DNA of 64,000 nt from Escherichia phage WPEC1 (PV659873.1), one strand, 5' to 3'. Positions 6,128 to 7,112 are shown, counted from the stretch's first letter. Notes: generated by a model not told the origin, from the letters alone. Numbers and translations: made by a program.

Positions 6128-6400
6128 CTAACACATTGAGGAAGAAGAGATCCAAACACCTCTTGTGGTTAAACCATTTTCATCCAACTCTACACCATAA
6201 TCTTCACAAATGAAATCAATATAGTGATCTGCGGCTGGCGTTCCTGTAGGGTAATAAGTTTCTCCGTTACCGTAGTCACCTATCCAAGCTTGTTCCTGAA
6301 ACTGTTCACAAAGTTCTTCAATCTCCTTACGAAACTTTCTTTGTGCTTGTTCCATCTCTTTAACTTTCTTTTTTATCAGCAGTTCGCCTTCAGACTCCAC
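6128..6400 (-). CDS. small acidic protein, paralog family member with C-terminal W-x-SSS-x-C
   Basis: ends GVWISSSSMC. Confidence 0.45.
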   Translation of the reverse strand: MESEGELLIKKKVKEMEQAQRKFRKEIEELCEQFQEQAWIGDYGNGETYYPTGTPAADHYIDFICEDYGVELDENGLTTRGVWISSSSMC

Positions 6401-6409
6401 AATCTCTCC

Positions 6410-6670
6410 TTAACAGCTACTACTGTGCCAAACGCCTTGAGAATTAACGACGAAACCATCATCACCTTCACCATAACAAGAAGAGGATTGCCAATCTTCA
6501 AAACAGATTGCGTCATTTTCTAAACTAAGACCAAAACCAGCATCTTCAGCTTCTTTTGTAAGTTCGTCCACTAAAGCCATAATAGCTTGGGCTTTTTCAG
6601 TTAATTCTTCAACATTACGATCACTCATTAGTATTTCTCCTCTGGTTGGAAAACTGAACGACAAGCCCAC
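6410..6670 (-). CDS. small acidic protein, paralog family member with C-terminal W-x-SSS-C
   Basis: contains DWQSSSC and ends GVWHSSSC. Confidence 0.45.
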   Translation of the reverse strand: MGLSFSFPTRGEILMSDRNVEELTEKAQAIMALVDELTKEAEDAGFGLSLENDAICFEDWQSSSCYGEGDDGFVVNSQGVWHSSSC

Positions 6671-6942
6671 ATACTAGCTTCTTTTAAATGTTTAATAGCA
6701 CAACGGATTTGATCAATACGTTCGTATGCAAGATCTAATTCTTTTTCTGTGCCGTCAAAAGACCCATGATATGCTTCACAATACTCTTCCTCTAAAGCTT
6801 TGAAGATTAAACCTAAACGCTCTTCTGCATCTTTAATAGCGTTAACCTTGCCAATCTTATCGTCAGTATGCGCCTTATAACCTTTGATATCTTCGATTCC
6901 CACTTTACCTCCTATTAACAACTTAAAGAAGATGGATGCCAA
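6628..6942 (-). CDS. hypothetical protein
   Basis: 104-aa ORF. Confidence 0.35.
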   Translation of the reverse strand: MASIFFKLLIGGKVGIEDIKGYKAHTDDKIGKVNAIKDAEERLGLIFKALEEEYCEAYHGSFDGTEKELDLAYERIDQIRCAIKHLKEASMWACRSVFQPEEKY

Positions 6943-7112
6943 TTTGTTCCAGTATTCTCATTTTCATCTTCTGGATCATAATAGCCACCCATCCCATATT
7001 CAGGGGAGAAACGGAAACCTTTACCAGTCTCATCTGCTAACTGCTCTGCTTCCGCTAAAGCCTCATAAGCTGCTTTTACGGCTTCTTCTACTGTTTTAAA
7101 CTTGGTCGTCAT
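6915..7112 (-). CDS. small acidic protein, probable third member of W-x-SS-x-C family
   Basis: ends NWHPSSLSC. Confidence 0.4.
   Translation of the reverse strand: MTTKFKTVEEAVKAAYEALAEAEQLADETGKGFRFSPEYGMGGYYDPEDENENTGTNWHPSSLSC

Follow-up and report, generated by a model that had tools for sequence, protein, structure and literature searches.

What might three small neighbouring genes share with one another, and with the enzyme gene beside them, when their products all end in the same short peptide? The question is raised by the genome of Escherichia phage WPEC1, a phAPEC8-like E. coli myovirus (Phapecoctavirus, Stephanstirmvirinae), of which we analysed one 64-kb stretch (the window). Three minus-strand genes between positions 6128 and 7112, here named A, B and C, encode small proteins with a tail of the form W-x-x-S-S-x-x-C-COOH. 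Profile searches place them in a large superfamily of small acidic alpha/beta proteins that is restricted to phages, in which they are old paralogues of one another. By gene order, arrays of one to six tail genes and one downstream gene for a MenT/ANT-like nucleotidyltransferase form a two-component module conserved among large virulent phages. The enzyme probably recognises the small proteins through their tail.

Three genes with one tail

The genes concerned, in the order of transcription, are:

6915-7112, minus strand: gene C, 65 amino acids (aa); canonical member with an N-terminal helix, a beta-hairpin with a YGMGG turn, an acidic loop and the tail NWHPSSLSC-stop
6410-6628, minus strand: gene B, 72 aa from an ATG at 6628; internal DWQSSSC-YGE and terminal GVWHSSSC-stop, with short spacing
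6128-6400, minus strand: gene A, 90 aa; an AAGGAG site precedes its GTG start; GDYGNGETYYP ... DENG ... GVWISSSSMC-stop
5096-6037, minus strand: partner enzyme gene, 313 aa; DUF7277 and DUF7275

The initial annotation had described three minus-strand open reading frames (ORFs) with the C-termini GVWISSSSMC, GVWHSSSC and NWHPSSLSC, and a second, internal DWQSSSC in the middle protein. All of these are read directly from the sequence. The proteins are also acidic, as was proposed, with pI values of 4.05-4.4 and net charges of -8 to -13. Within the window, endings of the type W-x(0-2)-SS-x(0-3)-C occur in three of the 974 stop-to-stop ORFs that span 30 aa or more. These three are A, B and C, all within 1 kb. 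A shared out-of-frame DNA repeat could have produced such a likeness. This artefact is rejected because the Ser codons differ (TCT/TCC/TCA versus AGT/AGC) and no direct DNA repeat runs across the tails. Thus, the likeness has been selected at the protein level.

PHROG 899, a family of unknown function, is matched by A (E 5.1e-14), B (E 1.4e-5) and C (E 1.2e-12), in all cases on the C-terminal part of the profile. These matches identify A, B and C as homologous. Gene A aligns end to end with the profile of the canonical family (hhalign 86%, E 4.7e-6), and gene B aligns over the N-terminal helix and first strand only (57%). Among 5.8 billion proteins searched with a profile, 268 family matches were found. 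When 1.84 billion cluster representatives were searched exhaustively with a hidden Markov model (HMM), 883 of them (50%-identity clusters) matched at E <= 1e-3 and 501 matched at E <= 1e-10. The HMM match nearly always extends to the last residue of the protein.

Conservation of the tail in homologues, on which the initial annotation had made its proposal depend, is strong. In 66 diverse members, residues F33, G40, M41, G42, G43, W58, S61, S62 and C65 (C numbering) are invariant. Among the 257 retrieved members, 252 have a terminal Cys and 243 fit W..SS..C-stop. A and C fit this pattern, and B fits the short variant W.SS.C-stop. In 160 of the 257 the terminal Cys is the only one, which makes an intrachain metal site unlikely. 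Zinc ribbons and similar motifs with three or four Cys/His ligands were rejected on this ground and because no His is invariant. Hence, of the suggestion that the tail is a modification, targeting or metal-binding tag, the metal-binding part finds little support within one chain; the idea of a recognition or modification tag is favoured by the synteny with a nucleotidyltransferase gene presented below.

The AlphaFold2 (AF2) model of C, calculated with the family alignment, has a mean predicted local distance difference test score (pLDDT) of 89.7. A helix (8-29), predicted with high confidence in agreement with the proposed helical N-terminus, is followed by a hairpin (33-38/41-45) with YGMGG at the turn. 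The rest is an acidic variable loop, a third strand with Trp58, a short helical turn (61-64) and the terminal Cys. C thus has the canonical body of helix, YGMGG hairpin and Trp strand. In A, YGMGG is replaced by YGNGE and an insertion is present, and B lacks YGMGG. No fold match for the model of C was found in the PDB. Searches of A, B and C against Pfam, NCBIfam and PADLOC gave no match, and sequence searches of the PDB gave spurious helical or low-score matches only and no solved structure.

Clear A-type and B-type orthologues are present in T4-like phages of Citrobacter, Klebsiella and Aeromonas, which argues that the three window genes are old lineages and not the product of a recent local duplication. 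More generally, proteins with the tail fall into 16 BLAST clusters with clearly differing bodies of 52 to 217 aa, among them proteins of 139-217 aa. One 190-aa tail protein has an N-terminal WYL_2 domain (Sm-like SH3 barrel; PF10902, E 3.9e-8; locus L140, 2458-3030); no other recognisable domain was found joined to a tail.

Tail genes lie upstream of one enzyme gene

Two sets of loci were compared. The first set was seeded with the small proteins, using a back-translated AYGMGG pattern, and contains 45 loci. The second was seeded with the enzyme and contains 80 viral loci, whose 4-kb flanks were scanned for ORFs ending in W-x(1-3)-S-[SNT]-x(0-3)-C. In the first set, a same-strand enzyme gene is present in 34 of the 34 loci with enough downstream DNA; each of the remaining 11 has less than 1.75 kb of downstream sequence. 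In the second set, one to six tail ORFs are found upstream on the same strand in 76 loci. The tail pattern occurs in 221 of 1473 upstream same-strand ORFs and in none of the 4319 others (0/1184 downstream, 0/2936 on the opposite strand, 0/199 elsewhere). Clustering of the same-strand neighbours in the 80 loci shows that conservation across lineages is limited to the enzyme (80/80) and the tail families, the other neighbours being lineage-specific. No third conserved module gene (lyase, decarboxylase, kinase or E1) was found across these 80 neighbourhoods. The near-obligate position of tail genes upstream of a nucleotidyltransferase with an intact catalytic signature favours an enzyme-recognition or modification tag.

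Tandem paralogy is general. The canonical member is usually flanked by divergent paralogues that keep the tail, five of them in one locus. Members of the B-type cluster are found in 27-28 of the 80 loci in the second set, in every case upstream of the enzyme. Some phages have five or six consecutive tail genes (L053, 6593-8197; L063-L065, 2035-3895; L118 and L127, 2500-3990). Their long arrays include proteins of 139-155 aa ending in AWCSSSMxC, and others of 144 aa ending in GWISSSICW, with one residue after the Cys.

The linkage persists in Straboviridae, Stephanstirmvirinae, Otagovirus, RSP15 and jumbo phages, while the other neighbours change. In T4-like phages, the array is located in the variable e.x region or directly after gene 41. 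The linkage is also found on contigs binned into metagenome-assembled genomes (MAGs) of Bacteroidota, Saccharibacteria and cyanobacteria. Of about 50,700 deposited phage genomes, 714 carry the enzyme, which is spread over more than 2,200 clusters at 90% identity. A scan with one genome per species (185,579 species) gave nine loci, all on MAG contigs, eight of them with upstream tail ORFs. A bacterial or defence-island origin was rejected on this count. Thus, by its distribution in sequence databases the module is phage-restricted.

In WPEC1, the order along transcription is C, an Acb2-like gene, B, A, a hairpin, a promoter-like site and the enzyme gene. The initial annotation mentioned neither the enzyme gene nor the Acb2 gene. 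The elements between these genes are:

6628-6903, minus strand: homologue of Acb2/Vs.4-type anti-CBASS sponges, 91 aa; inside the array, not a family member
6102-6119, minus strand: intrinsic-terminator-like hairpin, AACCCGCTTCGGCGGGTT and a T run, 3' of gene A
6068-6096, minus strand: sigma-70-like promoter, TTGACA-17-TAAACT with TG, 5' of the enzyme gene; a consensus match only

Gene A ends 90 nt before the enzyme gene at 6037. A gap of roughly 106 nt is kept in close relatives; in other phages the gap is often 8-20 nt.

The terminator and promoter between array and enzyme gene would suit a tail that works independently of the enzyme. In such a case, the Cys, with Trp and Ser, would serve in dimerisation, in an inter-subunit metal or Fe-S site or in binding of a host protein. 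The genes would then be linked only through joint regulation or through the common descent of an accessory island. Two other observations agree with this. AF2 builds the tail into the fold, and B-type proteins have two motif copies per chain versus one in canonical members, as if Cys residues paired within B and between subunits elsewhere. However, the linkage survives across distant phage lineages and MAG contigs in which all other neighbours change. The order is strictly upstream and on the same strand, with gaps that are often merely 8-20 nt. We therefore consider both the enzyme-independent role and the corresponding explanation of the linkage to be quite improbable.

The partner enzyme

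The enzyme is composed of two domains, DUF7277 (Pfam, E 1.7e-13) and DUF7275 (E 7.5e-76), and belongs to PHROG 2141. All three families are uncharacterised. DUF7277, at the N-terminus, corresponds to a minimal Pol-beta-type nucleotidyltransferase head. DUF7275 forms the helical C-terminal two thirds (about 200 aa), with numerous invariant residues (His, Asp, Lys, Arg, Tyr) and the motif K-V-C-T-S-I-T-S-G-W. The AF2 model has a pLDDT of 91.6. It has the fold of Pol-beta-type transferases with the GS...DxD...acidic triad, as in the MenT and DUF1814 (AbiEii) toxins. Across 38 homologues, the most divergent of them about 50% identical, G5-S6, D26-x-D28 and E70 do not vary, and G-S and D-x-D are retained in distant homologues. 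Given this invariant catalytic signature, the enzyme is very probably active.

A sister clade of the enzyme, from Streptomyces and Gordonia phages and KVP40-like vibriophages, has no tail neighbours and has Thr in place of Cys264 (KKTITS). Tail genes are thus confined to one enzyme clade, as expected if the tail proteins and the enzyme interact. That they are missing exactly in the enzyme clades without Cys264 further argues against an enzyme-independent tail. In the sister clade the enzyme gene adjoins the gene of another conserved protein (...EVxPxQxTITxY; about 100-125 aa), which has no Pfam family and is absent from the tail-type loci. To judge from gene order, this seems to be another two-gene module, distinct from the first, around the same enzyme. 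Examples are found in Streptomyces phage Annadreamy (L151, 3348-4438), Gordonia phage BrutonGaster (L152, 1921-3092) and Vibrio phage phi-pp2 (L153, 2911-3968). In phi-pp2, a Sir2/CobB gene is also located near the tail-less enzyme homologue.

The closest structural relatives of the enzyme are the MenT proteins, which rank as the top structural match. In Mycobacterium tuberculosis, MenT1 is blocked by MenA1, a 68-aa helical antitoxin usually encoded upstream, which acts through its helix and whose C-terminus is dispensable (PMC10435456). Gene order and partner size are the same in the phage module. The small proteins could accordingly be antitoxin-like inhibitors that restrain or time a MenT-like tRNA-directed, or otherwise toxic, enzyme for host shut-off or RNA-end remodelling. 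In one such mode, the tail would plug the active site: the thiolate and carboxylate of the Cys would chelate the catalytic metals, and the Ser pair would imitate an acceptor hydroxyl. The strictly terminal Cys would suit bidentate chelation of two metals, and the acidity of the small proteins resembles that of a nucleic-acid mimic.

The neighbourhood of some enzyme genes may point in the same direction. In a T4-like contig (L117; 2612-3564, 3998-4915) the enzyme gene follows a cluster of seven tRNA genes, with no tail gene within 4 kb. The BrutonGaster gene (gp8) also adjoins a tRNA cluster, and RNA ligase genes are located nearby in RSP15 and Annadreamy. A function at RNA ends is possible on this basis.

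Several features are difficult to reconcile with inhibition. One inhibitor would suffice, yet arrays carry up to six different bodies with the same tail. MenA1 binds via its helix, whereas in the phage proteins the helix is variable and the tail invariant. No match was found between the enzyme and the DUF1814/AbiEii HMM, the PADLOC models or PDB chain sequences. Finally, a promoter of its own after a terminator is odd for a tightly coupled toxin-antitoxin pair. On balance, we consider both the inhibitor role and the plugging mode unlikely, although inhibition is the main alternative to the explanation preferred below.

The tail as recognition or modification element

The tail motif consists of nucleophilic residues (Ser, Ser and Cys) and is the common feature of otherwise differing bodies. 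If the enzyme recognises it, the small proteins may in addition be substrates of the enzyme, a further step that we put forward tentatively. We rank this possibility first among the mechanisms. One enzyme, many partners and one short invariant nucleophilic motif fit a substrate tag better than a single inhibitor. The characterised relatives of the enzyme all transfer a nucleotide to a hydroxyl (tRNA 3'-OH, antibiotic hydroxyls). Protein Tyr or Ser hydroxyls are the acceptors in MntA-HepT, GlnD/GlnE and CitX. The substrate role is favoured also because no second enzyme is conserved in the neighbourhood.

In such a mechanism, the enzyme would transfer a nucleoside monophosphate or another nucleotide-derived group onto the invariant Ser pair (Ser O-nucleotidylylation). 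The terminal Cys, through its carboxylate or thiol, and the Trp would hold the tail in the active site. A single enzyme could thereby mark or switch several different small effectors. These are probably early host-takeover or counter-defence factors, as suggested by their small size, their acidity, their diversifying paralogy, their position in an accessory region and the Acb2 gene within the array.

The variable bodies may have another meaning. The small proteins could be adaptors or specificity subunits, each binding a host or phage target through its body and docking on the enzyme through the common tail, thereby widening the range of substrates. An invariant tail on diversified bodies, with one enzyme per array and no further conserved component, is consistent with this. 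So is the conservation of each of the lineages A, B and C across distant phages, as for distinct targets. However, a docking peptide needs neither nucleophilic residues nor an exact Cys end. To our knowledge, there is no precedent for adaptors with this enzyme fold. Adaptors thus seem improbable to us.

The S-x-x-C-COOH spacing and the obligatory last Cys also recall the formation of aminovinyl-cysteine (AviCys) and C-terminal activation, as known for epidermin/EpiD, ubiquitin/E1, Pup/PafA and MccA/MccB. The chemistry could then be that of ribosomally synthesised and post-translationally modified peptides (RiPPs) or of protein modifiers. The Ser would be activated to dehydroalanine, with a lanthionine or AviCys-like ring across S-x-x-C, or the terminal carboxylate would be activated for conjugation as in ubiquitin-like proteins, Pup or MccA. 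The many precursors per enzyme are RiPP-like. Nevertheless, no gene for LanB, LanM, LanKC, an HFCD decarboxylase, an E1 or a ligase is conserved in the 80 neighbourhoods. The proteins are confidently folded domains, as the AF2 model of C indicates, rather than leader-core peptides, and Pol-beta-type transferases normally take hydroxyl acceptors. We regard such chemistry as very improbable here.

Six points speak against the substrate mechanism, or against the tail as a recognition element, and need to be kept in mind. Ser O-nucleotidylylation alone leaves the strictly last Cys unexplained. In the model of C, Trp58 is part of strand 3 and the tail forms a short helix rather than a floppy peptide, so the motif could be partly structural. 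B-type proteins conserve a motif copy that is internal and not terminal. In four of the 80 loci (three distinct phages), the enzyme has no tail gene within 4 kb. In WPEC1, a strong terminator-like hairpin followed directly by TTGACA-17-TAAACT parts gene A from the enzyme gene. Lastly, the MenT relatives act on tRNA and have a small upstream antitoxin, which favours inhibition. Taken as a whole, the combination of a two-component module, tail recognition and modified substrates is nevertheless our best explanation, and we hold it with slightly less than even confidence.

Comparison with known systems

Pairs of a nucleotidyltransferase and a small partner are known (MenAT, MntA-HepT). What is new are phage-borne arrays united by an invariant C-terminal tag. 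MenAT1 is chromosomal, with one antitoxin, whereas the module of WPEC1 type is phage-encoded and has one to six tail proteins. MenA1 does not have the W..SS..C tail of the phage proteins. Compared with MenT1, the phage enzyme has the additional helical DUF7275 domain and no DUF1814 HMM match.

MntA-HepT (type VII), GlnD/GlnE and CitX/MdcG are Pol-beta-fold transferases that covalently attach a nucleotide or a nucleotide-derived group to a partner protein at a side-chain hydroxyl. For CitX/MdcG this partner is a small acidic acyl-carrier subunit with an acceptor Ser. The acceptors in these systems are internal Tyr or Ser residues of one dedicated partner, and we know of none with a portable, shared C-terminal tag. 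HEPN, PII and carrier-protein domains were not detected in the phage module. ANT(2'')-Ia and LnuA differ in that they act on small molecules, have no protein partner and are encoded by resistance genes, not phage genes.

In RiPPs of the prochlorosin/ProcM type and AviCys peptides of the epidermin type, several products with one short motif are associated with a single adjoining enzyme gene, and the C-terminal S-x-x-C is found there as well. The phage proteins differ from these, being folded proteins of 60-200 aa with no lanthipeptide synthetase or HFCD decarboxylase gene nearby. They were therefore not assigned to the lanthipeptide/AviCys precursors, in view of their confident fold and the lack of any such conserved enzyme family in the 80 neighbourhoods. 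A literature search on PHROG 899, DUF7275/DUF7277, YGMGG and phage nucleotidyltransferases/AMPylation, of incomplete coverage, found no paper on the module.

The surrounding region

Bases 5000-9000 of the window are 100% identical in Escherichia phages WPEC2/4/6 and more than 99% identical in about 20 others. In RefSeq relatives, every gene of the region is labelled hypothetical.

The gene located between C and B (6628-6903) matches PF24729 (Pfam, E 1.2e-16) and the T4 Vs.4 chain 7uq2_A (E 1.8e-28). On these matches it is a homologue of the Acb2/Vs.4 cyclic-oligonucleotide sponge, a blocker of CBASS (the antiphage signalling system based on cyclic oligonucleotides). This small counter-defence protein belongs to the same cluster as A, B and C, is unrelated to them in sequence and fold and has no tail. 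A, B and C were rejected as relatives of the Acb2/Tad1 sponges, since they have no Pfam match and only the intervening gene matches. In one relative (L062), the Acb2 gene is missing from an otherwise collinear array and C, B and A are contiguous, which argues for a lineage-specific insertion.

The Acb2-like gene also bears on the start of gene B. The gene coordinates of the initial annotation are retained for A and C. For the middle gene it had used the GTG at 6670; the ORF is longest from this codon, but it runs into the Acb2-like gene. The ATG at 6628 (MSDRN...) agrees with the RefSeq annotation of Mt1B1_P17 and leaves a 1-nt stop/start overlap with that gene. The start of gene B is thus most likely the ATG at 6628.

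Two further ORFs upstream of the array have endings that recall the tail. The ORF at 7365-7877 (minus strand, 170 aa) ends in LWQSSDQ with no Cys. It was not retained as a member because homologues in related phages do not keep this ending, which is probably coincidental to judge from that comparison. The second is:

8456-8764, minus strand: possible degenerate fourth tail gene, 102 aa, ending ...PFEITC-stop; membership uncertain

Homologues of the latter end in ...WPFTVTC or ...PFEITC, with a terminal Cys and Thr replacing Ser. Together with A, B and C it makes up the only four plausible window genes ending in Cys, all upstream of the enzyme gene and within about 2.7 kb. By its ending and position it may be a degenerate fourth tail-bearing gene.

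The accessory surroundings (about 2000-4750 and 9500-15000), according to the RefSeq annotation of a relative (L001), carry Sir2-like and DprA-like genes and two DNA methyltransferase genes. They also carry genes for a NinI-like Ser/Thr phosphatase, an HslV-like peptidase and PhoH, and form a typical host-interaction island.

Implications

The module is common in T4-like, phAPEC8-like and jumbo phages and in phages of Pseudomonas, Acinetobacter and Aeromonas; many of these are candidates for therapy. Both partners are annotated as hypothetical. Because a short invariant tag on several proteins is tied to one enzyme, the function is directly testable. If the small proteins are inhibitors of the MenT-like enzyme, the module would represent a toxin-antitoxin relative carried by phages, in which inhibition works in a new way. 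If they are counter-defence or host-shut-off factors, the tail would give a simple sequence rule for finding hundreds more.

A still more tentative view is that of virus-encoded protein tagging, in which a portable C-terminal tag of eight residues could mark up to six seemingly unrelated small effectors per phage genome for covalent modification by one dedicated MenT/ANT-like nucleotidyltransferase. The enzyme could nucleotidylylate Ser or Cys, or it could activate the terminal carboxylate for conjugation. If this is true, the phages would encode a tag and writer module without described counterpart, which would switch or arm host-takeover and anti-defence proteins.

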